Source: Gammaproteobacteria bacterium | Lineage (GTDB): Bacteria; Pseudomonadota; Gammaproteobacteria; Eutrophobiales; Eutrophobiaceae | Assembly: GCA_963422205.2 (NCBI GenBank) | Contig: CAXMWX010000001.1 | Location: forward strand, 96,001-160,000 | DNA length: 64,000 bases | Reading direction: 5' to 3' | Shown: positions 32,012-57,681 of the stretch, in pieces | How positions within the stretch are numbered: the stretch's first letter is position 1 | Layout: each line of letters begins with the position of its first letter | Notes under the pieces: model-generated | The model's database searches: none | What the model was told of the DNA's origin: nothing | What the model saw: only the letters and a program-made list of their open reading frames with translations | Position numbers and translations under genes: made by a program

Positions 32012-32950
32012 CTATAGTTTGATGAGCCAGTCACACAGCGAAACCATCTGTTCCTCATTGGTTAAGTTGGCTCCATTTGAAAGCGTACCCTCATGGAGTT
32101 GCTGGTATATCTCTTTTGCCATGGCCTTTTCAATCGCAGCGCCAATAAAAAATGTTTTAGGCTGGAGACCTTTTGCAGAAAATGCCGAGTTTGCCGTTTT
32201 CCAGTGCTCATCGGCTCCTGCTGGATCAATACCGCCTTTTAGTTCTCCCAAAGCAAGATATTTTTCTGGTTTATGATGCGCTGAATTCTTATTTTTTCCA
32301 AAAATTATCTCATTGGGTGAGCAGGCAAATAGACACAGATCAACATTCTTTTTTACTGTTGGTACCGTTAAGTTGTAAATCAAGGTTCTTGCATTGCTAT
32401 TAGACAGCCAATGTAAACCTCTAATTCGCTTCTCTATATCTGGTTCAGGCTTGGGGCTAAACCATTTTTTTGCCTTTGAGTCATAATACTCAAAATCTAT
32501 CCCACTTATGGCGCAAGTAGATATAAGCATCCTTGAAAATTTCCATTCTCCCAAAGCACCGGCCAAATTTCTCATACTGCCTCCAAGTGAATCACCCCTG
32601 GTAAGTAAGAAACGATAAACCAGTTCATCTATAAAAAATTTGCCGGAAGGTTTCAGGAAATTTTTGATTAGGCTTTGTATGGCCGCTTGTTTATCTGCTT
32701 CTCGCAGGTGATTCTTAGCTTTGTCAGAAATTCCTGATGCAGTCAGTAAAGAATTTCTGATTTCACTTATTTGCAGTAAATCCTTTGGTGTTTTTGCCTT
32801 TAACGCAAATACCCTGAGTGCGTTAGCCTCCTCAACAAAAGGGGTTGCTTTTCTATTTTTTTCTAATGCTAAAGCAATGAAGCCTACCCGTATTTCTCCA
32901 TAAGGGGTGATCAGGTTTTTATAAGATTTCAGATGGTCATTGAATGGCAT
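32012..32950 (-). CDS. Type II restriction endonuclease, AvaI/BsoBI family (family target CYCGRG); possibly impaired
   Basis: GFIALALEKNRKATPFV, YRFLLTRGDSLGGSMRN, KNVDLCL and GELKGGIDPAGADEHWKTA match the AvaI/BsoBI family as recalled. DNA is AT-rich. Confidence 0.9.
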   Translation of the reverse strand: MPFNDHLKSYKNLITPYGEIRVGFIALALEKNRKATPFVEEANALRVFALKAKTPKDLLQISEIRNSLLTASGISDKAKNHLREADKQAAIQSLIKNFLKPSGKFFIDELVYRFLLTRGDSLGGSMRNLAGALGEWKFSRMLISTCAISGIDFEYYDSKAKKWFSPKPEPDIEKRIRGLHWLSNSNARTLIYNLTVPTVKKNVDLCLFACSPNEIIFGKNKNSAHHKPEKYLALGELKGGIDPAGADEHWKTANSAFSAKGLQPKTFFIGAAIEKAMAKEIYQQLHEGTLSNGANLTNEEQMVSLCDWLIKL

Positions 32951-34402
32951 TTAGGCTCTTTTTTTCCAGACACAGACACATTTTCTTAGTGCGGTTCGTC
33001 CATGTTTACCCATTTGTTGAGAGCTATTGCCTTTACCCTGAGGCAGGACAAGAATATTTTCTACTCGAAACCCTGTGGTTTCAGCGATTTTTGACAGTAG
33101 GGTATCTACGGATATCGCTGCACCGGCATATCGGACATTGTCATTGACCATAAACATCAAGCCACCTTTATCCAAAACCCGATAGCATTCCTGGATGACA
33201 CAACTCATTTCATAGAAATAACCTCTCACCATGCGGGCTATACCGCTATTATTCAATTCTTTTTGCTCCTTCTTATAATCCAGGTAATTCAATATTTTCT
33301 GCAAGAGCGGTAAACCATCGCAAATATCAATGGCTTTTTTCCACTCGTTGTTAAAATCGGTCAGTTTTTTTGCTCTATTTTCTACGGTACAACTTAGCAG
33401 AGCTTGCCTTAATCCCATCAACTCGGCTTCATTGATTCCAAGTATGGCGTGTTCTAACGCATAAGTGCGCGTATAGTCATAGCGGTTGCAGTAAGGCGGG
33501 GAGGTGATTATCCCAGAGTAAGCATCACGTTCTAATTGAGGAAGAATATCCAGGCATGAGCCTTTGAATAAACGAATATCGCCCGCGCGCACCTCCCTGT
33601 GTAAAAAAGTAAACAGATCATTTTTATCGTCACAACGATTGATGTCCTGCTTGATTTCATGGAGCTTTTCTATAATCGCCTCATCAAACGGCAAAATGGC
33701 ACCTTTGTCAAAAGGGGTTTTGCCATTCCTTCGTCCAGACCGGTAATCCCAACGCAGGTATTGTCCATCCTTCCTCGTATAGCTGATTGACTCCAGGATA
33801 CATAACAGCGCAAATAATAATAGCTCTTTTGTGTCTATGGATTCATGTTCCAGCTCATGCAGGTATCTTCCTATTTTGCCCTGCGTCTCTGACGAATAGG
33901 CGCCCTTCGTGATGCGAAGCACGGCAAAATCTTTCATTGGACCTTGGGTATTCCAGGGTTTTTCAAGCAACCAGTTGTCTAAGCCAGCAATAATATTTTG
34001 TTTAGTCGCCCCCCTTGCCAGAATATTCGCATTGATGATTCTCTGGCCCACGGGCAAAACCTCAATGCCATCTGCATCATAACCCAAAGAAGAAGACACA
34101 AATAAAGACGTACCCGTTCCAGCGAACGGATCAAGCACCCTGCCTTGGTTCACACGATAGTTATGCAGAAGGTACTCAACTAACTCGGCAGAAAAGGCTT
34201 CCTTGTGTTTATACCATCTGTAGTAGGCACGCCCCTTATTCGCCTGGAAACTGACCAGCTTTCTGGTTAAGGCACTATCCGTGACTAAGGCACTGGAAAA
34301 ATATTCTGTTGACGATTTATCCAGCGCTGTTATTTCTCTAAAAAAAGTACCATCCTTTGCCATGCTGGAACTTTCGTCCTTCTCAACGGCGTTAAATGGC
34401 AT
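32951..34402 (-). CDS. N4-cytosine DNA methyltransferase (alpha motif order), cognate of the adjacent nuclease
   Basis: Motif I VLDPFAGTGT precedes motif IV ITSPPY. Its stop directly abuts the nuclease ATG. Start is more likely 34402 than 34483, which overlaps the fumarase gene. Confidence 0.9.
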   Translation of the reverse strand: MPFNAVEKDESSSMAKDGTFFREITALDKSSTEYFSSALVTDSALTRKLVSFQANKGRAYYRWYKHKEAFSAELVEYLLHNYRVNQGRVLDPFAGTGTSLFVSSSLGYDADGIEVLPVGQRIINANILARGATKQNIIAGLDNWLLEKPWNTQGPMKDFAVLRITKGAYSSETQGKIGRYLHELEHESIDTKELLLFALLCILESISYTRKDGQYLRWDYRSGRRNGKTPFDKGAILPFDEAIIEKLHEIKQDINRCDDKNDLFTFLHREVRAGDIRLFKGSCLDILPQLERDAYSGIITSPPYCNRYDYTRTYALEHAILGINEAELMGLRQALLSCTVENRAKKLTDFNNEWKKAIDICDGLPLLQKILNYLDYKKEQKELNNSGIARMVRGYFYEMSCVIQECYRVLDKGGLMFMVNDNVRYAGAAISVDTLLSKIAETTGFRVENILVLPQGKGNSSQQMGKHGRTALRKCVCVWKKRA

Positions 34403-34434
34403 GTTGAAAATATTATCCCTGGGCAGTACAACGG

Positions 34435-35964
34435 CTATGTGGTCGAGGCGGCGGTACGTTTTTTTATGATGATCTCCTGCCACTTTGCCGGGCCGCTCTG
34501 ATGCACTGAATTGCCAGTAGCATCAACAGCCACGGTCACCGGCATGTCCTTGACCTCAAATTCATGTATGGCCTCCATGCCCAATTCTGGAAAAGCGACC
34601 ACTCTGGCGGCGGTGATGGCCTTGGAGACCAGGTAAGCGGCGCCCCCCACCGCCATTAAATACACCGCCCCGTGTTTTTTGATGGCCTCTATGGCGACCG
34701 GGCCGCGCTCGGCCTTGCCGATCATGCCGATCAAGCCAGTGCTCTCCAGCATGAATTCGGTGAACTTGTCCATGCGCGTTGCCGTTGTTGGGCCGGCCGG
34801 GCCAACGACTTCTTCCCGGACGGCATCCACCGGGCCAACGTAATAGATGAATCTGTTGCGTAGATCAACCCCCTCCGGCAGCGGCTCGCCGTTATCCAGC
34901 AGGTCTTTGATGCGCTTGTGCGCCGCATCCCGCCCGGTGAGTAATTTTCCGGACAGCAGCAGGGTCTCACCGCTCTGCCAGTCCGCGATGCTGGCCTTGT
35001 TGAGTTCATCTAAGTTGACTCGGCGGGAACCCGCACCGGCATCCCAACTGATCTGCGGCCAGTCATCCACATCCGGCGGGCTTTGCCGGGCCGGGCCGGT
35101 GCCATCCAGGGTGAAGTGGGCATGGCGGGTGGCCGCACAGTTCGGGATGAGGCCAACCGGCAGCGAAGCGGCATGGGTCGGGCAGTCCAGGATCTTGACA
35201 TCCAGCACAGTGGTCAGGCCGCCCAGCCCCTGGGCGCCAATACCCAGATCATTGACCGCATGGTAGATGTCCAGCCGCAACTCTTCAATGCGATTTTGGG
35301 GGCCGCGCTGTTGCAGTTGCTGGATATCAATAGCGGCCAGCAAGGACTCCTTGGCCAACACGGCGGCCTTCTCGGCCGTGCCGCCGATGCCAATCCCCAG
35401 GATCCCCGGCGGACACCAGCCAGCGCCCAGGGTCGGGACTGTCCGCACCACCCAGTCAACGATGTCATCGCTGGGGTTCAGCATCACCAGCCTGGCCTTG
35501 TTCTCCGAACCGCCACCTTTGGCCGCCACATGTACTTCAACCTTATCTCCGGGGACGAGCTCGGTATGAATCACCGCCGGGGTATTATCGCCGGTATTCT
35601 TTCGGCTGCCCGCCGGGTCGCTCAGGATGGATGGGCGCAGCACATTGTCCGGGTGGGTATATGCCTGCCGCACGCCAGCATTGACCATCGCCGCCACACT
35701 CCTATCGGCCTCCCACTGCACCTGCATGCCGACTTTGAGAAACACGGTCACGATGCCAGTATCCTGACACATCGGACGCCTACCCATTGCACACATCCGG
35801 GAGTTCACCAGAATTTGTGCCAGCGCATCTTTGGCGGGGAGAGATTCCTCTCTCTCGTAAGCCTGGTTGACGGCCTCGATAAAATCCAGGGGGTGATAGT
35901 AAGAGATAAATTGCAGGGCATCGGCAATGCTCTCAATCATGTCTTGCTGCTTAATTATCGTCAT
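34435..35964 (-). CDS. Class I Fe-S fumarate hydratase
   Basis: RPMCQDTG, KGGGSENK, AGWCPP, NCAATRH, TGRDAAH, AGPTTATRMD. Confidence 0.95.
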   Translation of the reverse strand: MTIIKQQDMIESIADALQFISYYHPLDFIEAVNQAYEREESLPAKDALAQILVNSRMCAMGRRPMCQDTGIVTVFLKVGMQVQWEADRSVAAMVNAGVRQAYTHPDNVLRPSILSDPAGSRKNTGDNTPAVIHTELVPGDKVEVHVAAKGGGSENKARLVMLNPSDDIVDWVVRTVPTLGAGWCPPGILGIGIGGTAEKAAVLAKESLLAAIDIQQLQQRGPQNRIEELRLDIYHAVNDLGIGAQGLGGLTTVLDVKILDCPTHAASLPVGLIPNCAATRHAHFTLDGTGPARQSPPDVDDWPQISWDAGAGSRRVNLDELNKASIADWQSGETLLLSGKLLTGRDAAHKRIKDLLDNGEPLPEGVDLRNRFIYYVGPVDAVREEVVGPAGPTTATRMDKFTEFMLESTGLIGMIGKAERGPVAIEAIKKHGAVYLMAVGGAAYLVSKAITAARVVAFPELGMEAIHEFEVKDMPVTVAVDATGNSVHQSGPAKWQEIIIKKRTAASTT

Positions 35965-44543: not shown

Positions 44544-46085
44544 TTACAGCAACACGATATCATATTGTTCCTGGGAGTATATCGGCTCAACCTGAAACGT
44601 GATCGGTCTGCCAATAAATTCCTCAAGCTCTGCCACGCTGCTGGATTCCTCATCCATCAGCATATCAACGATTTTTTGTGGTGCCACCACCAGCAGTTTC
44701 CGGGCATCAAATTGCCTCACCTCGCGCAATATCTCACGAAAAATCTCGTAGCAGACGGTCTCGGCGGTCTTGATGCTGCCGCGCCCATCGCAGGCCGGGC
44801 AAGGCTCGCAAAGAATATGTTCCAGGCTTTCACGGGTTCGTTTTCGGGTCAGCTGTACCAGCCCAAGTGACGTCAGCTCGCTTATGCTCACCTGGGAATT
44901 ATCCTTCTCGATATATTTTTCCATAGCCCGCAGAACCTGGCGTTTATGTTCCGGCTCCTGCATGTCGATGAAGTCAATGATGATGATGCCGCCAAGGTTG
45001 CGTAGTCGTAACTGTCTGGCGATAGTCTGGGTGGCTTCCAGGTTGGTTTTGTAAATGGTCTCTTCCAGGTTGCGATGGCCGACAAACTTGCCCGTATTGA
45101 CATCGATCGTGGTCATGGCTTCGGTTTGATCGATCATCAGATGACCGCCGGATTTCAGTTGCACTTTTCGGCTCAGGGATTTTTGTAACTCATCTTCGAC
45201 CGAGTAGATATCCAGTATCGGGCGCTCGCCAGGGTAATATTCGATGCGGGAGAGAAACTCCGGGTTAAATTGTTTGCTGAACTCCCTCAGACGTTGATGG
45301 CTTTCCCTGGAGTCGATCCTGACTTTTTCTATCTCATCATGAACCAGATCGCGCATGGTACGCATGAGCAGGGGCAAATCCTCAAACACCAGGGCGGGGG
45401 CGATGGTATTTTTCGCCCTGACAAAGGTGGATTGCCAGAGTTTGTGCAGAAAGTTCATGTCTTTCTGTATTTCCCTGGCGGCTATGCCCTCGGCGGCTGT
45501 GCGGACGATAAACCCGCCTTTGCCCATGCTCTCAACATCGCGCAGGCTGCCGTGCATCACGACTTTGATACCATCAACGGCGGCTAAGTGTTGTATGGTG
45601 GGCTGGTAATCTGCCACCGCTTCTCGTAGCCGTTCGCGCTCTGCCTCTGCTTCAATGCGCTGGGAGATCCCGATGATGCTGTCATCCGGGATATACACCA
45701 GATAGCGTGAGGGGATAGAGATGCGGGTCGTGAGCCGGGCACCTTTGCTGCCCAGCGGGTCCTTCATGACTTGCACCAGGGTTTCCTGACCTTCATGCAG
45801 CAGCGCATCAATATTGTTATGCTGGCTCACCTCCTGGACGATCTCCAGATCTTCTACAGTCTGCCCGATATCGGCGATATGCAGAAAGCCGGCACGTTGC
45901 AGACCGATATCGATAAAAGCCGCCTGCATCCCCGGCAGCACCCGCGATACCTTGCCTTTGTAGATGTTACCGACCAAGCCCCTTTTCTGCGTCCGCTCAA
46001 TGTAGATATCTTGCAGCATCCCGTTTTCAACCACGGCAATGCGCGTCTCATGGGGGGTGACGTTGATTAGGATCTCCTCGCTCAT
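44544..46085 (-). CDS. rng: Ribonuclease G
   Basis: VGNIYKGKVSRVLPGMQAAF, TEAMTTIDVNTG, RNLGGIIIIDFIDM, CPACDGRG. Confidence 0.97.
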   Translation of the reverse strand: MSEEILINVTPHETRIAVVENGMLQDIYIERTQKRGLVGNIYKGKVSRVLPGMQAAFIDIGLQRAGFLHIADIGQTVEDLEIVQEVSQHNNIDALLHEGQETLVQVMKDPLGSKGARLTTRISIPSRYLVYIPDDSIIGISQRIEAEAERERLREAVADYQPTIQHLAAVDGIKVVMHGSLRDVESMGKGGFIVRTAAEGIAAREIQKDMNFLHKLWQSTFVRAKNTIAPALVFEDLPLLMRTMRDLVHDEIEKVRIDSRESHQRLREFSKQFNPEFLSRIEYYPGERPILDIYSVEDELQKSLSRKVQLKSGGHLMIDQTEAMTTIDVNTGKFVGHRNLEETIYKTNLEATQTIARQLRLRNLGGIIIIDFIDMQEPEHKRQVLRAMEKYIEKDNSQVSISELTSLGLVQLTRKRTRESLEHILCEPCPACDGRGSIKTAETVCYEIFREILREVRQFDARKLLVVAPQKIVDMLMDEESSSVAELEEFIGRPITFQVEPIYSQEQYDIVLL

Positions 46086-46202: not shown

Positions 46203-47054
46203 CTATTCAATGATCAACACGGACTCATCACCCGCCTCAACATCAAACAACTCATCGTAGTCCTCACTTGGGGGGTTGCCGTCATGCACAAGGAATTTGC
46301 GTCGCTGCAAGAAGGCCTCACGGGTAAACGTATACGGATCAATAGACGCCTCATCGACAAACTCAGACTCATCCAGCAGGTTGGCACGGCTGTTGATCAG
46401 GCTTAATACGGTCAGTGGCAGGAAGCTCAGGCCACCAATGTATGTGATCGGATTGGTTACATAACTGCTGCCATAGTTTGGCACGTTGCGGGCGGTGTTC
46501 AACCCCATAAGCGGTATATTCAAATAAGCCCCTTGGTCAACACCCCAAACGGCCAGGGTTTGACCAAAATCTTCCTCATGCACAGGCAGACCCATGGGGG
46601 TGGCGACATCAAATAACCCTCCAATGCCGACAGTGGTATTGATAATAAAACGCAACAGATCAGAGAAACCGATATTCAGCTTGCCCTGCAGAAAACTGTT
46701 CAACACGACATTTAAGTATCTTAGGTTGTCAAAGAAATTGGTGATAACATCACGCACCGGTTCCGGGGTGATGTGGCGATAGCCCCTGGCAACCGGCCGC
46801 ATGAAATTGCGATCCAGGGAGTCATTAAAATTGTACACCTGGCGGTTTGTCTTCTCATAAGGGTCGTTATTGACTGTTCCGTCCGGGCTTTTGGTCGTCG
46901 CACAACCTGACAGTAATACCGTTGCAATCAGCATCGCTGGCATACACCTTAACCATCCGGCCCGGGCGCCGGCCAGGGTTGTTTTCATTCTCTGTCCCTC
47001 ATCGTTATTTTGCAGGCTGTTCATGTTATGCACTGAAGTTATGCGCCGGGCCAC
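46203..47054 (-). CDS. mlaA: VacJ/MlaA-family outer-membrane lipoprotein
   Basis: Lipobox LLSGC, DPYEKTNR, RFIINTTVGIGGLFDVA, EDFGQTL, DPYTFTREAF. The true start is probably downstream of 47054. Confidence 0.9.
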   Translation of the reverse strand: MARRITSVHNMNSLQNNDEGQRMKTTLAGARAGWLRCMPAMLIATVLLSGCATTKSPDGTVNNDPYEKTNRQVYNFNDSLDRNFMRPVARGYRHITPEPVRDVITNFFDNLRYLNVVLNSFLQGKLNIGFSDLLRFIINTTVGIGGLFDVATPMGLPVHEEDFGQTLAVWGVDQGAYLNIPLMGLNTARNVPNYGSSYVTNPITYIGGLSFLPLTVLSLINSRANLLDESEFVDEASIDPYTFTREAFLQRRKFLVHDGNPPSEDYDELFDVEAGDESVLIIE

Positions 47055-47061
47055 AGGCGCA

Positions 47062-47703
47062 TTACTCTACAGGCTTGGTCATCGTCCTGGCGTTTTCCTC
47101 CAGGGCATGAACCTTTGCTGCAAGTTTATCACGCAACACATTGTAACCGTTTTCTTTTAGAACGGAAGTGTATTCGGCTCTTTTCAGCGACAGATCACTG
47201 ACTCCGTTTGCGGTGACATTAATAATCTGCCATTGCCCATGGGTCGGCTGCAACAGATAATCCAGTGTCACAGATGGCTTGCCGGGCCGCCGTAACTCCG
47301 TCTTAACCCGCAAGCGACCGCGTTTTGCCCTCTCCGTGGTATTGATGTGAAATGACTCCCCATCATAGCCGGCGAAACGAGAGGCATAGGTGGCGGTGCT
47401 TAACTGCTGAAACAAGCGGACAAACCCTTCCTGCTGGGCCTCATCCAGCCCAGCCCAGTGACGGCCCAGGACAACCTCTGCTATGCGTCTGGAATTAAAA
47501 TGCGTGGCGATCACAGGCTGCATGATCTTAACCCTGCCATCATAACCCAGAACATCCGCCTGCTGCATGATTTCCAGCAGGGCATTGTGCAGCGTGGTGA
47601 CTGTCAGGTTAGCCGCCTCATTATCTGCCTCGCTATCTGGCAGGGACTGCACCTGACCGGACAGGCAAAGCAAAACAAGCAGCAGGGGTAATGATGGCAG
47701 CAT
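47062..47703 (-). CDS. hpnM: HpnM/MlaC-like periplasmic lipid shuttle
   Basis: Signal peptide, VLGRHW, YASRFAGYDGESF, WQIINV..NGVSDLSLKRAEY; in an operon with hpnH and hpnB. Confidence 0.78.
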   Translation of the reverse strand: MLPSLPLLLVLLCLSGQVQSLPDSEADNEAANLTVTTLHNALLEIMQQADVLGYDGRVKIMQPVIATHFNSRRIAEVVLGRHWAGLDEAQQEGFVRLFQQLSTATYASRFAGYDGESFHINTTERAKRGRLRVKTELRRPGKPSVTLDYLLQPTHGQWQIINVTANGVSDLSLKRAEYTSVLKENGYNVLRDKLAAKVHALEENARTMTKPVE

Positions 47704-47827
47704 TGAGATTGGCTGGCCGGGCAGGTGCTGTTTAAGGGGCGAAGTAAAAAAAATCATGGGCAAAAATCACGCGTTGTTTTGTATGTGCTGACAAGTTCTG
47801 ACCCGGCTTGTTCAAAAATTATGCCGG

Positions 47828-48964
47828 TCAATAGTGGCGGTCTTTCCAACTTGGGCCCGCCCCGCACCAATAGCGCCAGGCTGAATGCCAGGTCATGAGC
47901 AGATACAGGCAAGCAGATAACGGCAGAGCAAGCGCCCAGACAGGGTGCAACTGGTAGTAACAGACAGTCGGCAGGTAGCTTAACACCATGATGAGCAGGG
48001 GGAGCAATGTGAGGCTGCCCAGGGTGAGATTGCCCAGGGCAAGATTGCCAGGGCCGGGTGCAAACAAGGCCAGCGATAGCACCGGCAGGACAAATGTGCT
48101 GATCATGAGCAGCGTACAAAGCACTAACAGACCGACAGAGCAGCGCAGCTGGGTGAAGGCCGTGCGTGTCACCATAGACCAGATGGCGGTCAGCCGCTCG
48201 TAAGGGCGCCGGCTGATGGCGGCCTGGGTGAGACCTGTCCAGGTGCGGTAGCCGGCCGCCTTGATTTTTCGCGCCAGGCGGCAGTCATCGATGATGGCAT
48301 CCTTGATGGCGGCAAACCCACCGATTTCTATCAGCACTTTTCTGTCAAGCAAAATGCAGCCGCCGGCCGCGGCGGCAATCAGCGGATGGCGTGAATTGGC
48401 CAACTGAAACGGATACAGCAGCTTGAAAAAATAGATAAATGCGGGCAGCAACAGCCGCTCCCAGCCAGAGCGCATGGGCAAAACGGCCATCAGAGAGATA
48501 AGTTGACGTTCTTCAATCTGCATTTTCCGCTTTAAGGCGGCGATTGTCCCGGGCAGCAGTTCAATATCCGCATCAAGTAACAACAGCTTGTCTGTTTCTG
48601 CAAGGTTAAGGCCATGCTGCAAGGCCCATAATTTTCCAGTCCACCCCCGGGGCAGCTTCGGGCTGTTGATGATGGTCAGGTTTTCAAGGTGCAGTGCTTC
48701 GGCGGTGGCGACTGTGGTGTCGGTGGACTCATCGTTAATCAGAACCATGTTAAGGCCGTGGCCTTGTTGTGACAGGGCGGTCAAGGTGGTGGCGATACAG
48801 TCAGCCTCATTGCGTGCCGGTATGAGGGCGGTGATGTCAGACAGATCGGGCATGCTCCCTGCCATCGCCTTGAGCGTCTCGCCAATGCGCCAGGGCTGCC
48901 ACGGCAGAGCGATGATGACAGACCATAGCATCGCCCCTGGCAAGGCCAGCCAGCCTGTATCCAT
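47828..48964 (-). CDS. hpnB: Hopene-associated GT2 glycosyltransferase
   Basis: IPARNEA, DESTDTT, GWTGKLWAL, DADI, AAAGGCIL, IIDDCRLA, WSMVTRTAFTQL and C-terminal WKDRHY; TGATG-coupled to hpnH. Confidence 0.85.
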   Translation of the reverse strand: MDTGWLALPGAMLWSVIIALPWQPWRIGETLKAMAGSMPDLSDITALIPARNEADCIATTLTALSQQGHGLNMVLINDESTDTTVATAEALHLENLTIINSPKLPRGWTGKLWALQHGLNLAETDKLLLLDADIELLPGTIAALKRKMQIEERQLISLMAVLPMRSGWERLLLPAFIYFFKLLYPFQLANSRHPLIAAAAGGCILLDRKVLIEIGGFAAIKDAIIDDCRLARKIKAAGYRTWTGLTQAAISRRPYERLTAIWSMVTRTAFTQLRCSVGLLVLCTLLMISTFVLPVLSLALFAPGPGNLALGNLTLGSLTLLPLLIMVLSYLPTVCYYQLHPVWALALPLSACLYLLMTWHSAWRYWCGAGPSWKDRHY

Positions 48965-50142
48965 CAGGCGGCGTGTTTGTTATCGGTATCCCTGGTGCGG
49001 CTACAGCCTGTGGCTGGCCTGGTCCTGGCGACAGGGCCGGGCCGGGTGGGCGTTCCGGGGGGCGCATCCGCATACATGACGGGCAATTCAGGTGCCATCG
49101 GGCCGTCTGTTTTCGGGCCAAAGACAGCCACTTTTAACGCCTTGAGTGGATGCCTTAAAGTGTCATTGACCGCACTGGCCTCATAGCCGCTGTGTACCAT
49201 GCAGTTAGCACATTTGGGATTGCGCCCGCTGCCGTAATTATCCCAGTCTGTCTCTTCAATCAGGCTTTTATAGCTTGGTGCATAGCCCTCGCCGACCAGT
49301 AAATAACAGGGTTTCTGCCAGCCGAACACATTGCGCGTGGGGTTGCCCCAGGGCGTACACTGGTAACTCTGGTTGCCGGCCAGAAAGTCCAGATACAGCG
49401 AAGACTGATTAAATACCCAGCGCTTTTTGGCGCCCAGCACCCAGCGCTTTTTGGCGCCCAGCTTGAACAGATCACGGAACAGCTGCTTACTCTCCTTGCG
49501 CTTTAAGAACACATCCTGACGGGGCGCCCGCTCATAACTGTAGCCGGGCGAGATGGTCACGCCTTCAATCCCCAGTCCGCTCGCCATGTCCATAAAATCA
49601 GCAATCTCCTCAGCCGACTCCCCCTGAAATAGGGTGCAGTTGATGGTCACACGAAAGCCCCTCTGGCGGGCACGTTTGATGACGGCAACGCATTTATCGA
49701 ACACACCTTCCCGACAGACCGAGGCATCATGGCGCTCACGGTTGCCGTCCAGATGGATAGAGAAGGTGAGGTAACTTGACGGCTGGTAGTCATCAAGATG
49801 GCGCTCAAGCAGCAAGGCGTTGGTGCATAAATAGACGAATTTTTTCCTGGCAATGAAGCCGCTGACAATCTTTGGCATTTGCTTGTGGATCAGCGGCTCA
49901 CCGCCGGCAATGGACACAACCGGCGCCCCACATTCATCAATCGCCTGCATACAGTCATCATAATCAAGGCGTTTGTTGAGGATCTCCTCCGGGTAGTCTA
50001 TCTTGCCACAACCTGCACAGGCCAGATTGCAGCGGAACAGCGGCTCCAGCATGAGCACGAGCGGGTATTTGCTCTCCCTTTTCAATTTCTTGCCGATGAG
50101 GTAGGTGGCGATCTTAAACTGTTGGATTAATGGTACAGCCAT
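48964..50142 (-). CDS. hpnH: Adenosylhopane synthase (radical SAM)
   Basis: YPLVLMLEPLFRCNLACAGCGKI, SIAGGEPL, CTPWGNPTRNVFGWQKPCYL, CANCMVHSGYE. Start at 50142 with a GGAG upstream. Confidence 0.95.
   Translation of the reverse strand: MAVPLIQQFKIATYLIGKKLKRESKYPLVLMLEPLFRCNLACAGCGKIDYPEEILNKRLDYDDCMQAIDECGAPVVSIAGGEPLIHKQMPKIVSGFIARKKFVYLCTNALLLERHLDDYQPSSYLTFSIHLDGNRERHDASVCREGVFDKCVAVIKRARQRGFRVTINCTLFQGESAEEIADFMDMASGLGIEGVTISPGYSYERAPRQDVFLKRKESKQLFRDLFKLGAKKRWVLGAKKRWVFNQSSLYLDFLAGNQSYQCTPWGNPTRNVFGWQKPCYLLVGEGYAPSYKSLIEETDWDNYGSGRNPKCANCMVHSGYEASAVNDTLRHPLKALKVAVFGPKTDGPMAPELPVMYADAPPGTPTRPGPVARTRPATGCSRTRDTDNKHAA
49415..49462. repeat. Perfect 24-bp tandem duplication inside hpnH
   Basis: acccagcgctttttggcgcccagc occurs twice, encoding LGAKKRWV-LGAKKRWV. 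Confidence 0.95.
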
Positions 50143-50519
50143 CTGGGTTACTCCAATGTCAGCTTGGAATGCAGGCGATTTCAAGGCACTTAACAGCGGC
50201 CTTGAAAAATTCCGGTTATTAACGATGGATTAATGATAAATCAGTGATAAATTAACAGCATAGCCATGATAATACAAACCTGACATGTATGGCTATCAGT
50301 TTTAAAAGTCTACGATGTTGTTTTATTGCAAAAAACACGGGCTTCTCATCTTGCAAGCATCGCCCGGGCTATTCATAATAGCGTAATTTTTGCACAGCAG
50401 GCAGTGACTGGCATGGCCCCATCAACACGGCCGCTATACCTCAAGGCAGGCCAGCCAGTGCTGATCTTTTGCAATGGCGGAGTTTAAGTTCAAGGCAATA
50501 ACAACAGCCAAATAACAAC

Positions 50520-52469
50520 ATGTCCGATACGATGATAACACCGCTGCTGGATACGATTGATTCTCCTGCTGATCTCAGAGAATTGCCGGAATCGAAACTT
50601 GTGTCCCTTGCCGGTGAAATACGTGCCTGCCTGCTGCACTGGGCCAGTAATAACAGCGGTCATTTCGCCGCCAGCCTGGGTGCGGTCGAGTTGACCATCG
50701 CCCTGCATTACATCTTCAATACGCCGGAGGATCGTCTGGTATGGGATGTGGGCCACCAAGCCTACGGCCACAAGATCCTTACCGGCAGACGTGGCCGCCT
50801 GCACAGCATTCGCAAGCAAGGCGGGCTGGCACCTTTCCCCAGGCGTGAGGAGAGCGACTACGATGCGTTTGGTGTGGGACACTCCAGCACGTCAATCGCC
50901 GCCGCCCTGGGCATGGCGATAGCCGCCCAGCGTCTGGGCAGCCAGCGTAAGGCTGTTGCTATCATAGGCGATGGCGGCATGACCGCGGGCATGGCCTTTG
51001 AGGCGCTTAACCATGCTGGGGATACGGGCAGTAATCTGCTGGTTATCCTGAACGATAACAACATGTCAATTTCACCGAATGTCGGTGCCTTATCAAACCG
51101 TTTCGCCAGGATACTGTCGGGCAGGCTCTATACCAGTGTGCGGGAGAGAGGCAGAAAAGTCCTGGCTAACATGCCCTCGGTCTGGGAAGTGGCAAAACGG
51201 GCTGAAGAGCATATCAAGGGCCTGATCGTCCCCGGCGTCTTGTTTGAGGAGTTTGGCTTTAACTATATCGGGCCAATAGACGGCCATCACCTGCCTACCC
51301 TGCTGGAGACCATCCGTAACGTCAAGCAGCTTGACGGGCCGCAGTTTCTGCACGTTATCACCCGCAAGGGCAAGGGCTATGGCCCGGCGGAGGATGATCC
51401 GGTGAAGTATCATGCGGTCAGCAGGCCGTTTGATCTTGAGACCGGCATGGTGACAGGCACCAAAAGCAAGCCATCCGGCGTAACGTACAGCGAGATTTTC
51501 GGCGACTGGGTGTGTGATATGGCCGAGCGTGATCCTCGGCTGGTGGCTATCACCCCGGCCATGCGTGAAGGCTCCGGCCTGGTCGGGTTTGCACAAAAAT
51601 TCCCCGACCGGTATTTCGATGTGGCGATCGCCGAGCAACACAGCGTTGCGGTCGCAGCGGGCATGGCATGTGATGGGCTGAAGCCAGTGGTGGCGATCTA
51701 TTCCACTTTTCTGCAACGGGCCTATGATCAGGTGATCCATGATGTGATCGCACAGAAGCTGCCGGTGTTGTTCGCTATCGATCGGGCCGGCCTGGTGGGG
51801 GCGGACGGGCCAACACATAACGGCGCTTATGACTTGAGTTTCCTGCGCTGTCTGCCCGATATCGTCATCATGGCCCCGGCCGATGAGAACGAATGCCGGC
51901 AGATGCTCTATACCGGCTTTACCCTGGATCAACCGGCGGCCGTGCGCTATCCGCGCGGGGTCGGCCCGGGTGTGCAAGTGCAACAAGAGATGACACCGAT
52001 CCCGGTCGGCAGGGCCGAGCTAAGGCGTCAGGGCCGGGGCGTTGCCATACTCTCCTTCGGCGCCATGTTGTTACCGGCGCTGTCGGCGGCGGAGAAGCTG
52101 GATGCCACGGTGGTCAACATGCGGTTTGTCAAGCCACTGGATCGGGGCATGATTGCACAGGTGGCACAGCAGCATGAATTGCTGGTGACCATTGAAGAGA
52201 ACATGGTGCAGGGCGGTGCTGGCAGTGCCGTGAATGAGTTGTTATCCGAGCTGGGGATCACGCCGCGGATTATCCACTACGGCCTGCCTGATCGACAGAT
52301 TCAGCATGGCTCACAGCAGGACATGCTGGCAGATGCCGGCTTGACCGCCGCTGGCCTGCTGGCGTTTATCCAGGATCATCTCTCTGCTGCACGCATCACC
52401 ACCGCCCGTGGCAAACAAGACTATCCCGACCGGCGTACAGGCCGGGCGGCTGTGAGGGCCTTGAATTAA
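50520..52469 (+). CDS. dxs: 1-deoxy-D-xylulose-5-phosphate synthase
   Basis: [15 protein letters not shown], ThDP motif GDGGMTAG...[30 protein letters not shown]. Confidence 0.98.
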
Positions 52470-52484
52470 GCTGGCGCTGTCTTG

Positions 52485-53642
52485 TCAGGTCAATCGGCCA
52501 AAAGCAAATTGTTGCCTCAACCTGTCTAACACCGCCGCTGGCGATACCGCCGGTCTTGGCAGCGGATCGACGGTGCCAGCTAAGGTTCTTATATGTGCAA
52601 AGCGCGCCCCCTTGACACCAGTCGGCTCAAATACCTGCCCCAGCACATCAAGGCGGCTGCCGCTGATCGCCATGCCATACCCACAGGCATGGGCAATGTC
52701 GGCAAAGCGCACGTTGGCCGATACGGTGGCCTGGGCGCCGGTGGAGTCATGCACCCCGTTATCCAGCAGCAGGTGGATCAGGTTGTCCGGGCCATAGCTG
52801 CCTACCGTTGCCAGATTACCCATACGCATCAACGCCGCCCCGTCACCATCAATGACGACAATGCGGATATCCGGTCGTGCCCTGGCAAGCCCCAGACCCA
52901 GGGCGGAGGCACACCCCATCGAGCCGACCATGTAGATATGGTTTGCCCGGTCTGCCAGTGCGAATAACTCCCGGCTGGTGTAGCCGGTGGTGGCGATGAG
53001 GATGGATTGATTCTCCGGGGTATGGTGCAACAGTTGCTCAAGCACCTGGTGCCGCGTTAATTGCGGATTGCCGGCATCAACATGGCGCAGCAGGCGGTCT
53101 GTCTGGTGGCGATCAGGGATGGTCTGTTGCGTCAGTTCACAGGCCGCCGCCGTGTTTTTTTGCATGATAAAGGCATAGGGGCGGGAGTCGGTCTGCATGG
53201 ACGTCAGCGCACGTGCCAGCGCCGGGGCGATGGCATCAGTCTCGGTCGGGAAGCCTTCCCATCGGATCTGCATCAGATCAAACAGCGCCGTGGTCATTGC
53301 ACCCATCAGGGCATGTTGGGGTTCGTCTGTTATCCCCGGCGCTCCCCGGTGCGTGGTGATGATGAGCAAGGGCAGCTTGAAAATATGCGTCAGCGAGGTC
53401 AGCGGATTCACCGCATTACCCAAACCTGAGTTTTGCATCAGCGCTACGGCGCCCTGGCCGGCAATGGCAAAACCGGCGGCAGTGGCGATCGCATCGCCCT
53501 CATTGACGGCCGAGATGTAGTTTAGATCATCGGCCGAGATCACATAATTGATGAACGGGGTGAGGTGCGAGCAGGGTACGCCGCAATAATGGATCAACCC
53601 GGCAGCCTGTGCCTGCTTGATGAAGGTAGCGGCCTCAATCAT
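52485..53642 (-). CDS. aepY: Phosphonopyruvate decarboxylase
   Basis: GVPCSHL, NEGDA, MQNSGLGNAVNPLTSL, DEPQH, YMVGSMG, DGDGAALM, HDSTGAQ; directly downstream of the PEP mutase gene. Confidence 0.94.
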   Translation of the reverse strand: MIEAATFIKQAQAAGLIHYCGVPCSHLTPFINYVISADDLNYISAVNEGDAIATAAGFAIAGQGAVALMQNSGLGNAVNPLTSLTHIFKLPLLIITTHRGAPGITDEPQHALMGAMTTALFDLMQIRWEGFPTETDAIAPALARALTSMQTDSRPYAFIMQKNTAAACELTQQTIPDRHQTDRLLRHVDAGNPQLTRHQVLEQLLHHTPENQSILIATTGYTSRELFALADRANHIYMVGSMGCASALGLGLARARPDIRIVVIDGDGAALMRMGNLATVGSYGPDNLIHLLLDNGVHDSTGAQATVSANVRFADIAHACGYGMAISGSRLDVLGQVFEPTGVKGARFAHIRTLAGTVDPLPRPAVSPAAVLDRLRQQFAFGRLT

Positions 53643-53656
53643 GCGGCAGATCGTGA

Positions 53657-55336
53657 TCAGGACTGGCCGTGGGTAAAGTCGGCTGCCTTGTCAAGATCAT
53701 CGAGCGTGTTCACATCCAGCCAGTGACCGTTGATGTAATGCACATTGACCGTCTTGCCGCCAGCCAGCAGGTGGTTGATGAGATCAGGCAGGCTGAGTTG
53801 CCGATAATCCGGCTGTTGTTGCAGCTCGGCTATCGCGGCTTCGATCTGCGCTCTGCCAGTGGCGTTGACCTTGAGCATGCCTATCCAGCGGCCTGAAGGC
53901 TCGCCGCTGTCCAGTTTTTTCCTCTCGGCAATGTGTTTGAGTGTCACCTCGGCCATGAATAATGCGCGGTCATCTTCCTGGCTGCAATAGGCATAATCCG
54001 GCGGGTCGCTGACGGGGACATGCCGGGCGGAATCAACCACGATGACGATATCGCCCGTACTTTCCAGCAGGTCGCGCAGGATATAACCACGAAATAACAG
54101 ATCGCCATAGGTGATGATCATATCATCGGTGAATTTGTCCAGCGCCGAGGCCAGGCTCACCAATTCGCCCGTGTCCTGATAATCTTCATTAATGCACAGA
54201 TCAAACCCCGCCGCGGCCAGCTTTTCTGCCTTATAGCCGGCTATCACGGTAACCGCCGTGACAGATTGTTCTCTGAACTCATCAACCAGCCGCCTGATCA
54301 ACGGCACGCCGCCGATGGTCAGCATGGCCTTGGGGCGATCTTCGGTCAGCTCATAAAGAGAATGACCGCGGCTGGCGGCAAGCACCAGTGCCTGTGTTTC
54401 GGTGGCCGGGTTGAGATAGCGCTCCTGGGCGCGGCGTAACTCATCTGCCCCCTGTAGTGCAAAGATGTGATCAACGCTGGCGATCTGATCTTCAATACCG
54501 GTTAATGATTGCTCGGCCATGATCTGCTGGCTGATGCTCTCCATGCTTTCAATCGAACTGCGGATCATGTGATTGGCCCAGATCACCAGGCTGATCCCCG
54601 CCTTGCGAAAGACCGCGGTTGGGGTGCTGTAGTACTTGGTCGGCACGATGACAACAGGGCAGCGATTATCCCAGGCGTTGGCGAAGGCGATGATCTCATC
54701 CGGGCGCGAGCGCTTGCTGTGGATCAGGATCGCATCGGCACCGGCCTGATGATACGCCTCGGCCCGGCGCAGTGCCTCGGCCAGGCCCCAGCCGGCGATC
54801 AACGCTTCGATACGCGCCACGATGCAAAAATCATCATCACGCTGGCTGTCTTTGCCAGCCTTGATCTTGCCGCAAAACTCATCGATGTCGGCCAATGGTT
54901 GTCGCTTGCCATCGATGAAGCTGTTGGTCTTGGGAAACAGTTTGTCCTCTATGCACACCCCGGCAATATGGCGCTGTTCCAGCTTGCACACTAGCCGCCG
55001 CATGTTATTGAAATTGCCATAACCGGTATCGCCATCCAGCAGGATCGGGATGCTGGTGGCATCGGACATGAACTCCAGCATGTCGATGATCTGTGTCCAG
55101 CTGGCCTCGTTGCTGTCACGCACACCGAACTGGGCCGACAGCGCCAGGCCGCTGGCCCAGATCCCCTTAAAGCCGGTGCGCTCTACAATTTTTGCCGATA
55201 TGCCATTGTGTGCTTCCAGGATAAATTCCAACTCCTGTGAGGCGAGCAAGGCATGTAACCGGGCTGATCTCGATAATTCGGGCGGCCGGGTTTTCCTGGT
55301 CTTGTCGGGTATATGATTAGAGACAGGATCAGGCAT
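53657..55336 (-). CDS. aepX: Phosphoenolpyruvate mutase fused to a C-terminal nucleotidyltransferase domain
   Basis: PepM-diagnostic EDK-x5-NS ([10 protein letters not shown]), DGDTGYG, EAHNG; C-terminal domain LAASRG...DRPKAML...YGDLLF...WLDVNT. Start at 55336 (MPDPVS). Confidence 0.95.
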
Positions 55337-56072
55337 GGAATCTCTCCAGCACCTCTGTCTGTGCTCTCTGTACATCTTCCGGGAAGTCGATTTCAATCCA
55401 CGGCAGGCCGGTAATGTTCTCATAGTGAAACTGTTCAGGCTGGCCAAGCACAAGGGCGCGAATCGCCTCCTCATGCGGTTCATTGACATGCCCCTCATCG
55501 ATACGGCGTTGCACCTGTTGTAATAACTGTGCGGCGAGCCTGCCGTCAAAGCGGAAAAAACCGACGGACTCGCCTTGTATATCCCAGCGCAGATGGCCGT
55601 CTATTTGCTTTCGCAATTCCACGATGCGATCAGCGTGTATACAGATTTTTACCGGCTCATCACCGGCGGCGAAATGCTCATCCAGCAGCAGACAGTTACG
55701 GTGCTGGCTATGAATCAGACGCTGCAAAATTTCTGTATGATACAGGACATCGGCATCCATGAGGATAAGGTCGGTTGCCGCTGCCAGTATATCTCTGGCA
55801 CAGTACAGGCTGACCATGCTGCCTTGCGTGTAGTTGGCGTTATAAATCGTCTGGATTGTTATATCGATAGTAAGCCCGGCGATCGCCTGCTCGATCGCCT
55901 GCTGCTGATAACCGGTGATGAGATAAACCTGCCTGATCCCGCCGTGCGCCAGGTTCTGGATATGCCGTTCAAGCAGCGTCACACCATCGAAGGCCAGTAA
56001 TGCCTTTGGCTGATCCCGGCCTGCCTGACCCAGGCGCTCGCCACGACCGGCAGCGAGTATGACGGCTTTCAT
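55329..56072 (-). CDS. LicC/PntC-like cytidylyltransferase
   Basis: [42 protein letters not shown]; overlaps the pepM start by 8 bp. Confidence 0.88.
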
Positions 56073-56385: not shown

Positions 56386-57681
56386 ATGTGTGCAGCTATA
56401 CCGAAAAAAATCGGTAAGTTTGAGATTCAGAAGCAGATAGGCAAGGGCAGCATGGGTGTTGTGTATCAAGCCTATGATCCTTTTACTGATCAGCTGGTTG
56501 CCGTTAAAGTGGCGCTGGCCGAATCGCTGAAGAAAAGCGAATCGGGGGCGCGTTACCGCAAGATGTTTTTCAACGAAGCGCATACCGCCGGGATGTTGCA
56601 TCATCCCAATATCATGAAAATTCTTGATGCCGGGGTGGATGAGGATGATTGCTATATCGTCATGGAACTGGTAGCGGGTGCCGATACGCTGAAGAGTTAT
56701 TGTCGGGCGGATAATCTGCTGCCGATAGCACAGGTCGTTGAGATCATCTTCAAGTGTGCCAAGGCGCTGGACTATGCACACCGGCAAGGCGTGGTGCATC
56801 GGGATATCAAGCCGACCAATCTGCTAATTACCCGGGAGAAAGACGTGAGGATTGGCGATTTCAGTATCGCCCATCTGATGACAACCGACATGAGTAACAC
56901 CATGCCCCTGGGGTTTGTTGGCTCGCCCCGCTATATGTCGCCTGAACAGGTGCAGGAGGACTCGATCACCAACCAGACGGATCTGTTCTCCTTAGGAATC
57001 GTGATGTATGAGTTGCTGACCGGCAGGCATCCATTCATCGCTAACAGTTTCTCCCGACTGATACACAAGATCATCAATGAGCAACAGCCGCCGCTGCGAT
57101 CCTATCGTAAAGATATTCCCGATATTCTGGAGAAGATCGTCCATCATGCCTTGCAGAAAAGCCCGGAGAAGCGCTACAAGATGGGACTGAATATCGCCGC
57201 CGATCTCAGCCTGACCTTTGATTATCTGGAAAAGCCACAAGAGGATATCGAGCAGGAGGAGAAATTAAACGCCGTGGAGAAATTGCAGTTTTTCAAGGGG
57301 TTTTCTACCGCTGAGATCGTGGAGATAATCAATGCGGGCATGTGGCAGACGTTTACCGAGGGCAGTCAGATCATCACCGAAGGGGAACTGGAGGATTCCT
57401 TTTATATTATTGTCTCCGGTGGTGTCAGCGTGTTGAAAGGCGAGCGGGTGATCAGACAGTTGCAGGCCGGTGATTGCTTTGGTGAAATGGGGTATCTCTC
57501 CAAGACCAAGAGGACGGCAACCATTGCAGCGGCCTCTGCTGTGCAGTTGTTAAAACTGAATGCGCTCCTCATTGAGCAGGCGTCACTGGAATGCCAGTTG
57601 CGTTTCAGCAAGGCATTTCTCAAGACGCTGGTGCAGCGTTTGTCCATGACGACATCCCTGTATGCCAACAGTGACAGGTAA
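56386..57681 (+). CDS. Hanks-type Ser/Thr kinase with a C-terminal cyclic-nucleotide-binding domain
   Basis: GKGSMGVV, VAVK, HRDIKPTN, GDFS, GSPRYMSPE, DLFSLG; CNB domain IITEGE..DSFYIIVSG...GDCFGEM..RTAT. Confidence 0.92.
   Translation: MCAAIPKKIGKFEIQKQIGKGSMGVVYQAYDPFTDQLVAVKVALAESLKKSESGARYRKMFFNEAHTAGMLHHPNIMKILDAGVDEDDCYIVMELVAGADTLKSYCRADNLLPIAQVVEIIFKCAKALDYAHRQGVVHRDIKPTNLLITREKDVRIGDFSIAHLMTTDMSNTMPLGFVGSPRYMSPEQVQEDSITNQTDLFSLGIVMYELLTGRHPFIANSFSRLIHKIINEQQPPLRSYRKDIPDILEKIVHHALQKSPEKRYKMGLNIAADLSLTFDYLEKPQEDIEQEEKLNAVEKLQFFKGFSTAEIVEIINAGMWQTFTEGSQIITEGELEDSFYIIVSGGVSVLKGERVIRQLQAGDCFGEMGYLSKTKRTATIAAASAVQLLKLNALLIEQASLECQLRFSKAFLKTLVQRLSMTTSLYANSDR

Follow-up and report, generated by a model that had tools for sequence, protein, structure and literature searches.

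Hopanoid tailoring genes and phosphonate biosynthesis genes lie side by side in the gammaproteobacterial locus described here, which raises the question of whether the two modules contribute to one product, such as a phosphonate attached to a hopanoid, or share only a neighbourhood. The locus occupies positions 46203-56072 of a 64,000-nucleotide stretch (the window: Gammaproteobacteria bacterium, assembly GCA_963422205.2, contig CAXMWX010000001.1, positions 96,001 to 160,000), in which hpnH-hpnB-hpnM-mlaA, dxs and a phosphonate operon adjoin one another. Linkage of this kind recurs among relatives of the locus; it is real, exceeds chance and is probably functional. Taken together, the evidence makes a functional coupling of the two modules likely, and a covalent phosphono-hopanoid plausible but unproven.

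The gene block and its two modules

The initial annotation had described positions 46203-56072 as a contiguous block of eight genes. The open reading frame (ORF) list and scans against Pfam and NCBIfam bear this out, with each gene found where it had been placed. Two details of the earlier gene calls changed: the start of the fusion gene needs adjusting, and the HpnB assignment falls just below its family cutoff. The gene content of the block is real and no chance pattern of ORFs. Its members are listed below (NTase, nucleotidyltransferase; PEP, phosphoenolpyruvate; SAM, S-adenosylmethionine).

46203..47054, minus strand: mlaA/vacJ-family outer-membrane lipoprotein gene (PF04333, 227 bits), the final gene of the hpnH-hpnB-hpnM-mlaA string
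47062..47763, minus strand: hpnM, MlaC-like periplasmic lipid-binding protein (TIGR03481, 191.0 bits, cutoff 160.1; PF05494)
47828..48964, minus strand: hpnB-like family-2 glycosyltransferase (TIGR03469, 359.5 bits, just below the cutoff of 379.25; Pfam GT2 and GT21)
48964..50184, minus strand: hpnH, radical-SAM adenosylhopane synthase (TIGR03470, 536.8 bits, cutoff 225.05; Radical_SAM and DUF3463)
50520..52469, plus strand: dxs (TIGR00204, 872 bits)
52485..53642, minus strand: ppd, phosphonopyruvate decarboxylase (TIGR03297, 417.6 bits, cutoff 312.5; TPP_enzyme_N and TPP_enzyme_C)
53657..55336, minus strand: PEP mutase fused to a C-terminal MobA/LicC-type NTase (Ppm::PntC-like, 559 aa; PF13714 and PF12804)
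55329..56072, minus strand: stand-alone PntC-like NTase (247 aa, MobA/LicC-type; PF12804, 63.9 bits)

The hopanoid genes are tightly packed, with a 1-nt overlap between the hpnH stop and the hpnB start, 64 bp between hpnB and hpnM, and 7 bp between hpnM and mlaA. The start of hpnH is uncertain, its ORF opening with TTG and the model alignment beginning at residue 15. For the hpnB-like protein, the runner-up families in the NCBIfam scan were CruG, a carotenoid glycosyltransferase, and HpnI; its gene takes the place after hpnH that hpnB occupies in relatives. The mlaA gene likewise holds the same place after hpnM in related loci, and its product scores below the cutoff of the E. coli MlaA equivalog model (145 bits, cutoff 375). 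MlaA and the MlaC-like HpnM are present, but the block contains no mlaFEDB genes, which a Mla system would include.

The dxs gene is divergent from hpnH, across a 335-bp spacer, and convergent with ppd, and the 15 bp first reported between the dxs and ppd stops were recovered (ORF ends 52469 and 52485). No column block was conserved at 80% when the dxs-hpnH spacer of the window was aligned with that of 22 other loci. Between positions 46000 and 56500, promoter-like sites numbered 13, against 8.1 +/- 2.7 in shuffled sequences, and terminator-like sites also 13, against 9.4 +/- 2.7, none of them in the 15-bp dxs/ppd gap; the only useful outcome was one promoter-like site (10/12) upstream of the NTase operon.

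Among known hopanoid loci, the hpn clusters of B. cenocepacia, hpnABH/ispH and hpnCEFGMN with vacJ (PMC5472815), are among the closest to this arrangement. Common to both are the adjacency of hpnH and hpnB, the pairing of hpnM with vacJ/mlaA and a linked gene of the methylerythritol phosphate (MEP) pathway. Unlike B. cenocepacia, the window contains no shc, hpnA, hpnC-E, hpnG or hpnN across its 64 kb, nor any squalene synthesis genes, its MEP gene is dxs rather than ispH, and a phosphonate operon is attached.

The phosphonate genes form a three-gene minus-strand operon, NTase-ppm::NTase-ppd, with the stand-alone NTase first. The mutase exceeds the TIGR02320 equivalog cutoff (397.2 against 319.55 bits), and its best match in the Protein Data Bank (PDB) is the PEP mutase 1m1b (E = 5.4e-126). 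It also carries the EDKXXXXXNS motif, which separates Ppm from other proteins of the isocitrate lyase family (PMC6697681) and whose positions are invariant in an alignment of 25 sequences. In its longest form, the ORF of the fusion gene (53657-55549) runs into the gene upstream of it; translation probably begins at the ATG at 55336, which shares bases with the upstream TGA (ATGCCTGA) and gives 53657-55336, or 559 aa. For the stand-alone NTase the start codon is the ATG at 56072, in agreement with the end of the block as originally drawn, and ppd starts 14 bp past the ppm::NTase stop. None of the three genes is disrupted, their translation is coupled, and they share 50-72% identity with their relatives.

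Both NTases are of PntC type by sequence: each carries PF12804 and is homologous to PntC or LicC, one being fused to Ppm and the other overlapping its start. The best solved relative of the fused part is LicC (1jyk, E = 5.5e-9), and the best PDB match of the stand-alone enzyme is 6pd1 (E = 1.2e-10, residues 2-174), which is the T. denticola aminoethylphosphonate (AEP) cytidylyltransferase PntC, Tde1415 (PMC6697681). Ppm-NTase fusions are the commonest Ppm architecture (Rice et al. 2019, PMC6697681). The locus thus resembles the Pnt pathway in its PF12804 family and in having Tde-PntC as nearest solved relative of the stand-alone NTase; it differs from it in the low similarity to Tde-PntC and in its two paralogous NTase domains. 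The stand-alone NTase is further linked to the mutase by a natural triple fusion, P0006 (797 aa; NTase::PEP mutase::NTase), whose first 242 residues share 49% identity with the NTase of the window and whose two NTase domains are only 26% identical to each other. Among NCBIfam models, the best match of the stand-alone NTase is the cytidylyltransferase half of IPCT/DIPPS (NF041135, E = 1.5e-21). In relatives the NTase is paired with a small cytidine diphosphate (CDP)-alcohol phosphotransferase, in the same two-step logic; unlike IPCT/DIPPS, however, the genes are unfused, the score is 76.9 bits against a cutoff of 580, and the substrates are certainly different.

Linkage of the modules among relatives

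In 41 of 80 related loci, the fused mutase gene has one or more hpn genes within about 10 kb. Of the 44 loci in which 7 kb or more are available on each side, 28 are linked, and these fall into four clades: 14 of 17 loci in gammaproteobacterial group A, which contains the window, all six in gammaproteobacterial group B, five of nine in Burkholderiaceae, and three of 12 in Cyanobacteria. By rough estimate, only a few per cent of random 20-kb stretches from a hopanoid producer would be expected to include hpn genes. The mutase tree (82 of 85 sequences, three of less than 450 aa having been dropped, and a quick method) groups by taxon, with supports of 100 for Burkholderiaceae, 100 for Cyanobacteria and 97 for group A, and hpn-linked rows occur in every large clade, so that the linkage does not reflect a single recent transfer. 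The number of hpn label changes on this tree (24, with 71 of 500 shuffles as low) was uninformative, the rows without hpn including truncated contigs. The co-localisation that the initial annotation had proposed to look for is therefore found, with the mutase near hpn genes in four clades and on an alphaproteobacterial plasmid, in differing gene orders.

These counts derive from a large and well-conserved family: all 8000 scored candidates matched the fused mutase, and the top 119 non-self matches shared 65-78% identity and both domains. With a profile of 25 members, 585 genomic relatives were retrieved (one genome per species), of which the 80 best were examined over up to 10 kb per side (loci numbered with L below). 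This sample is skewed to the nearer relatives of the window (58-72% identity), includes many related metagenome-assembled genomes (MAGs), and is drawn from genomes other than the window's own. Gene maps were made by tblastn with the window proteins and representatives of recurrent neighbour families, named from NCBIfam and Pfam; greedy ORF calls picked antisense ORFs in high-GC loci and so were not used for them. The hpn calls of representatives were checked against NCBIfam cutoffs. This removed 24-25% identical "hpnJ" matches in L039, L047 and L049, which belong to a PhpK-like B12 radical-SAM family and score far below cutoff; a weak hpnG match in L039 (86 against 187 bits) and an HpnN-like resistance-nodulation-division protein in L048 (287 against 752 bits) were not counted either.

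The trio NTase > ppm::NTase > ppd is nearly universal among the 80 loci, and in 51 of them it is followed by the AEP transaminase gene aepZ (PhnW-AepZ, 403 bits, cutoff 361). Directly next to ppd or aepZ comes dxs, in gammaproteobacterial, Pandoraea, Pararobbsia and Mycetohabitans loci alike. Group A shows the order pgi, Ser/Thr kinase, NTase, ppm::NTase, ppd, with or without aepZ, dxs<, hpnH>, hpnB>, hpnM>, mlaA>, rng (> and < giving direction). Group B has an additional upstream arm, which places hpn genes on both sides of the phosphonate genes. This arm comprises genes for a squalene-synthase-like protein, HpnG, HpnN, a 203-aa CDP-alcohol phosphotransferase (PF01066), HpnA, an LPG-synthase-TM/HpnL-like protein (PF03706; TIGR03476, 168 bits, below the cutoff of 196) and a HalD-like 2-oxoglutarate (2OG)/Fe oxygenase (PF23169). 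Across the survey, hpn genes stand on both sides of the phosphonate genes in nine loci (L017, L018, L019, L022, L053, L056, L060, L070 and L077).

The position of the CDP-alcohol phosphotransferase gene is of particular relevance to the acceptor question. In L017, L056, L060 and L070 it lies between hpnN and hpnA with zero intergenic gap, and in L019, where no hpnN was called, it follows hpnG by 163 nt and overlaps hpnA by 4 nt. Overlaps of 4 nt also occur in L056 and L060; these derive from longest-ORF calls, in which larger overlaps are overestimated. In four Pandoraea and two Pararobbsia loci, genes for the CDP-alcohol transferase, the oxygenase, the LPG-synthase-like protein, NTase, ppm::NTase, ppd, aepZ and dxs share one strand, and the order continues as dxs > hpnN< ispH> hpnH>. 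One of the Pandoraea loci (L023, 6681-8213) encodes the CDP-alcohol phosphotransferase and the HalD-like 2OG/Fe oxygenase as a fusion in a single 510-aa ORF.

Verified HpnA/HpnH or HpnJ genes are near the mutase in five of 20 Nostocales loci, namely HpnA and HpnH in Brasilonema and Nostoc calcicola, HpnA in Tolypothrix, and HpnJ in two Nostoc. Upstream of the CDP-alcohol transferase gene, three Nostocales loci (L039, 6227-7876; L047, 4658-6325; L049, 3998-5662) carry a gene for a B12 radical-SAM protein that is closest to PhpK-type P-methyltransferases (74-80 bits against a cutoff of 600) and is not HpnJ. In a Nitrococcus MAG (L037, 14052-15575), the hopanoid C-3 methylase gene hpnR (888 bits, cutoff 650) directly follows aepZ, and was counted as hpn.

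Linkage extends to plasmids and chromids. On the Mycetohabitans rhizoxinica megaplasmid, the order is seven-gene core>dxs>..hpnN<ispH>hpnH>hpnA>GT>hpnG<shc<, where GT is a glycosyltransferase gene. A 430-kb plasmid of the alphaproteobacterium Roseomonas marmotae has a complete hpn cluster (hpnA-GT-hpnCDE-shc-hpnG / ispH-hpnH / hpnN-vacJ), with the phosphonate (AEP), CDP-alcohol transferase and LPG-synthase-like genes set into its middle. Between hpnN and a polyprenyl synthetase gene of this plasmid (L081, 12133-13497) there is also a dxs-like stretch (50% identity over 69% of the length). It falls in a gap of the gene table and is perhaps a pseudogene, or a gene that the table omits. More broadly, hpnH was found on 32 plasmid or chromid records (E <= 1e-60), and the fused mutase lies within 13 kb of it on 10 of these, nine from Mycetohabitans and one from Roseomonas.

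The ppd/dxs junction itself carries inserts of several kilobases in three loci (L012, 12712-17131; L036, 13672-18019; L065, 13605-17902). Considered as missing pathway steps, these were rejected, as they hold defence and restriction-modification genes: GmrSD_N, AAA_15/AAA_21 with DUF3696, DUF6884 and two Dam-type methyltransferases. The junction has the appearance of an integration hotspot.

Possible acceptors of the phosphonate

We lean, without calling it probable, towards an explanation in which the two modules are joined by the CDP-alcohol phosphotransferase, which would move the phosphonyl group to a lipid alcohol, with a bacteriohopanepolyol or its sugar favoured. In the first module (hpnH-hpnB-hpnM-mlaA and dxs), family membership shows that HpnH turns hopene into C35 adenosylhopane and that Dxs opens the MEP route, boosting precursor supply; HpnB would probably glycosylate the extended hopanoid, and HpnM and MlaA would probably traffic hopanoids across the periplasm. 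In the second, again as family membership shows, Ppm converts PEP to phosphonopyruvate and Ppd converts this to phosphonoacetaldehyde, by chemistry established for both families. A transaminase encoded outside the window, corresponding to the AepZ found next to ppd in relatives, would then give AEP, which one or both PntC-type domains may convert to its cytidine monophosphate (CMP) derivative, CMP-AEP, given their homology to PntC and LicC. In relatives, the 2OG oxygenase would hydroxylate AEP, and the CDP-alcohol phosphotransferase would move the (hydroxy)aminoethylphosphonyl group from CMP onto a lipid alcohol. The favoured acceptor is bacteriohopanepolyol or its sugar, for whose addition HpnB is a candidate; the LPG-synthase-like protein may flip the product, and HpnN and HpnM/MlaA would then move it outward. 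Such an acceptor is favoured by the transferase gene inside the hpnN-hpnA string and by the repeated interleaving with hpn genes. In its fullest form, the proposal would have at least four classes make a bacteriohopanepolyol with AEP or 1-hydroxy-AEP on its side chain or sugar, installed by the transferase and exported through HpnN and HpnM/MlaA; this is possible, and we hold it with more reserve. The initial annotation had proposed a phosphonate on a hopanoid from the window alone. This idea gains from the recurrent linkage and from the transferase gene within the hpn string of five gammaproteobacterial loci, and loses from a window devoid of transfer genes and from cassettes that stand alone in Burkholderia and Cupriavidus.

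Several further observations weigh against a hopanoid acceptor. Within the 64-kb window there is no CDP-alcohol phosphotransferase, 2OG/Fe oxygenase or LPG-synthase-like gene, nor an AEP transaminase gene (a tblastn search with a representative AepZ as query found none at E <= 1e-3), and the local pathway ends at phosphonoacetaldehyde and two activating enzymes. Since the transfer genes are absent, attachment to a hopanoid is not readable from the window locus alone; the window is a reduced version, and the missing steps must lie elsewhere in the genome if the model holds. Many of the surveyed loci are related MAGs, so the counts overstate independent events, and no hpn gene is nearby in four of nine Burkholderiaceae and nine of 12 cyanobacterial fully flanked loci. 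Most Nostoc loci, as well as loci of Cupriavidus and Paraburkholderia, have the cassette by itself, and tblastn mapping found no hpn gene within 16 kb of the cassettes of B. cenocepacia and Cupriavidus sp. P-10. Four Burkholderia replicons carry the mutase and hpnH more than 1 Mb apart, and 18 of the 32 hpnH records (Azospirillum, Caballeronia, Cupriavidus, Methylobacterium and Streptomyces) have no full-length fused mutase on the same record, which makes the phosphonate module an optional companion of the hopanoid genes. In favour of the hopanoid explanation, genera in which the cassette is away from hpn genes do still have hpnH (four of four Burkholderia replicons, and four Cupriavidus replicons). 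The classical acceptors of CDP-alcohol phosphotransferases are diacylglycerol or small polyols and, together with the stand-alone cassettes, this favours a glycerolipid. A 2025 survey found no further candidate genes near alphaproteobacterial hpn clusters (PMC12583986). Our literature search, with most subscription journals outside its coverage, found no phosphorus-containing hopanoid; the initial annotation knew of no characterised phosphonate-bearing hopanoid.

A serious alternative, if a somewhat doubtful one, is an ordinary non-hopanoid phosphonolipid, such as a diacylglycerol- or ceramide-linked (hydroxy)AEP, with the hpn clustering reflecting shared envelope remodelling, co-regulation or co-trafficking and no covalent link. 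The LPG-synthase-like protein and the CDP-alcohol transferase do belong to phospholipid-type families. Burkholderia hopanoid profiles have been studied and, to our knowledge, no phosphonate conjugate has been reported from them. A phosphonolipid is also the published prediction for the same seven-gene core: the Burkholderiales_CDP-OH group, which makes up 318 of the 882 neighbourhoods surveyed by Li and Horsman in 2022, corresponds, according to these authors, to what Yu et al. (2013) called Group 1 phosphonolipids, and is predicted to give 1-hydroxy-AEP lipids (PMC8942020). The initial annotation had remarked that similar operons in Burkholderia-type genomes are usually ascribed to phosphonolipids. 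The phosphonate module of the window is this known family, whose product is uncharacterised. As in the published group, its Ppm is fused to a PF12804 NTase, a second PntC-type NTase lies directly upstream and Ppd is present, and relatives of the window locus have the full core (CDP-alcohol phosphotransferase, 2OG/Fe oxygenase, LPG-synthase-like protein, the two NTases with Ppm, Ppd and AEP transaminase). Unlike that group, the window has only three of the seven genes, and these border directly on dxs and hpnH-hpnB-hpnM-mlaA; the cassettes that we checked in Burkholderia and Cupriavidus stand alone. Co-regulation by itself poorly explains either a transferase gene set directly between hpnN and hpnA with no spacing or the repeated interleaving, in differing gene orders, in four classes. 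Nor has any phosphonolipid been characterised from the Burkholderiales_CDP-OH family (PMC8942020).

It is unlikely, though worth weighing, that the adjacency in the window is an inherited remnant of a full ancestral cluster, with the activated phosphonate now going to another acceptor (a glycan, lipopolysaccharide or protein) or with the pathway partly decayed. The CDP-alcohol phosphotransferase is within reach in none of the 28 group A loci, and aepZ is missing both from the window and from its seven assessable tree neighbours (L010, L012, L014, L015, L031, L036 and L065), observations that also count against the hopanoid reading, as does a Lysobacterales locus (L080) in which the same trio, with no CDP-alcohol transferase, sits in a non-hopanoid context beside glycerophosphotransferase-like and sulfatase-type genes. 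A remnant would further fit flanks made of housekeeping genes, pgi on one side and rng and yhdP on the other, and the defence islands between ppd and dxs, which leave both sides undisturbed. The state of the three phosphonate genes, intact, coupled and similar to their relatives, nevertheless indicates that the pathway is maintained, and the dxs/hpnH junction is kept in 14 of 17 fully flanked group A loci.

A diffusible phosphonate small molecule, with the adjacent dxs as a self-resistance or precursor-supply copy by analogy with the resistant DXR copy in the FR-900098 cluster, is very improbable. Phosphonates that target the MEP pathway do exist (PMC9782300) and no gene adjoins ppd or aepZ as constantly as dxs, but the window has no further tailoring enzymes, and the AEP transaminase, two PntC-type enzymes, CDP-alcohol transferase and flippase-like protein of relatives follow the logic of head-group tailoring (PMC6697681).

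The idea of a joint product of the two modules, which remains our preferred reading, is partly anticipated in print. A "phosphonoterpene" was suggested in one line (PMC8942020), an "undiscovered terpene-phosphonate" was mentioned elsewhere (PMC8776678), and a Pandoraea genome paper lists a "phosphonate-terpene" cluster (PMC5987411); another genome paper reports one through an automated call only (PMC7285500). The Nitrosococcus gene cluster family (GCF) 731 and the Acetobacteraceae "terpene-phosphonate" neighbourhoods likewise have a fused large mutase beside squalene or hopanoid genes; these remarks are one-liners from automated calls that give no count, transferase candidate or compound. Added here are a lineage-wide count, the CDP-alcohol phosphotransferase as candidate coupling enzyme in hpn operons, and concrete predictions. 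A one-line speculation thereby gains a named transferase candidate, carriers that can be cultured (Nitrosococcus, Nostocales, Pandoraea, Pararobbsia and Roseomonas) and predicted [M+H]+ values, calculated as 654.4857 for bacteriohopanetetrol plus AEP minus water and 670.4806 for its hydroxy form.

Hopanoids are major bacterial membrane lipids and geological biomarkers, and a considerable amount of biological phosphorus is present as phosphonates. No product is known for the most common of the predicted phosphonolipid gene families (PMC8942020), and on the hopanoid side the functions of hpnA, hpnB and hpnL were described in 2025 as unestablished and hpnM as elusive (PMC12583986). A covalent link, if true, would name the product of the Burkholderiales_CDP-OH family and add a phosphorus-containing class of hopanoids, a new biomarker and a new phosphonate sink; Group 1 phosphonolipid clusters would then be hopanoid head-group clusters, and part of the unexplained lipid-bound phosphonate would be hopanoid-bound. 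If there is co-regulation only, the phosphonolipid cassette would still be part of a hopanoid-associated envelope programme.

Flanking genes and the remainder of the window

The other 54 kb of the window consist of housekeeping DNA and one low-GC restriction-modification island of BsoBI type. The housekeeping genes include purL, purB, gyrA, serC, pheA, aroA, cmk, rpsA, mfd, glyA, ribD and nusB, together with genes for fumarase, a TonB-dependent receptor and a photolyase, acnA, mnmA, yhdP, rng and pgi. An Rfam scan of the whole window gave 0 matches at gathering thresholds. Two further features stand out:

32012-34483, minus strand: BsoBI-type restriction endonuclease (PF09194, E = 6e-135) and adjacent DNA methylase, GC 0.41 against about 0.56
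56386..57681, plus strand: Ser/Thr kinase with a cyclic-nucleotide-binding domain (Pkinase and cNMP_binding), the divergent neighbour of the NTase operon

The BsoBI-type island was probably acquired. The kinase may be a regulator. Many loci of group A have an orthologue, 58-77% identical, in the same position beside the NTase, and a second copy often lies beyond pgi; the kinase is better conserved than the NTase, which is 42-55% identical.

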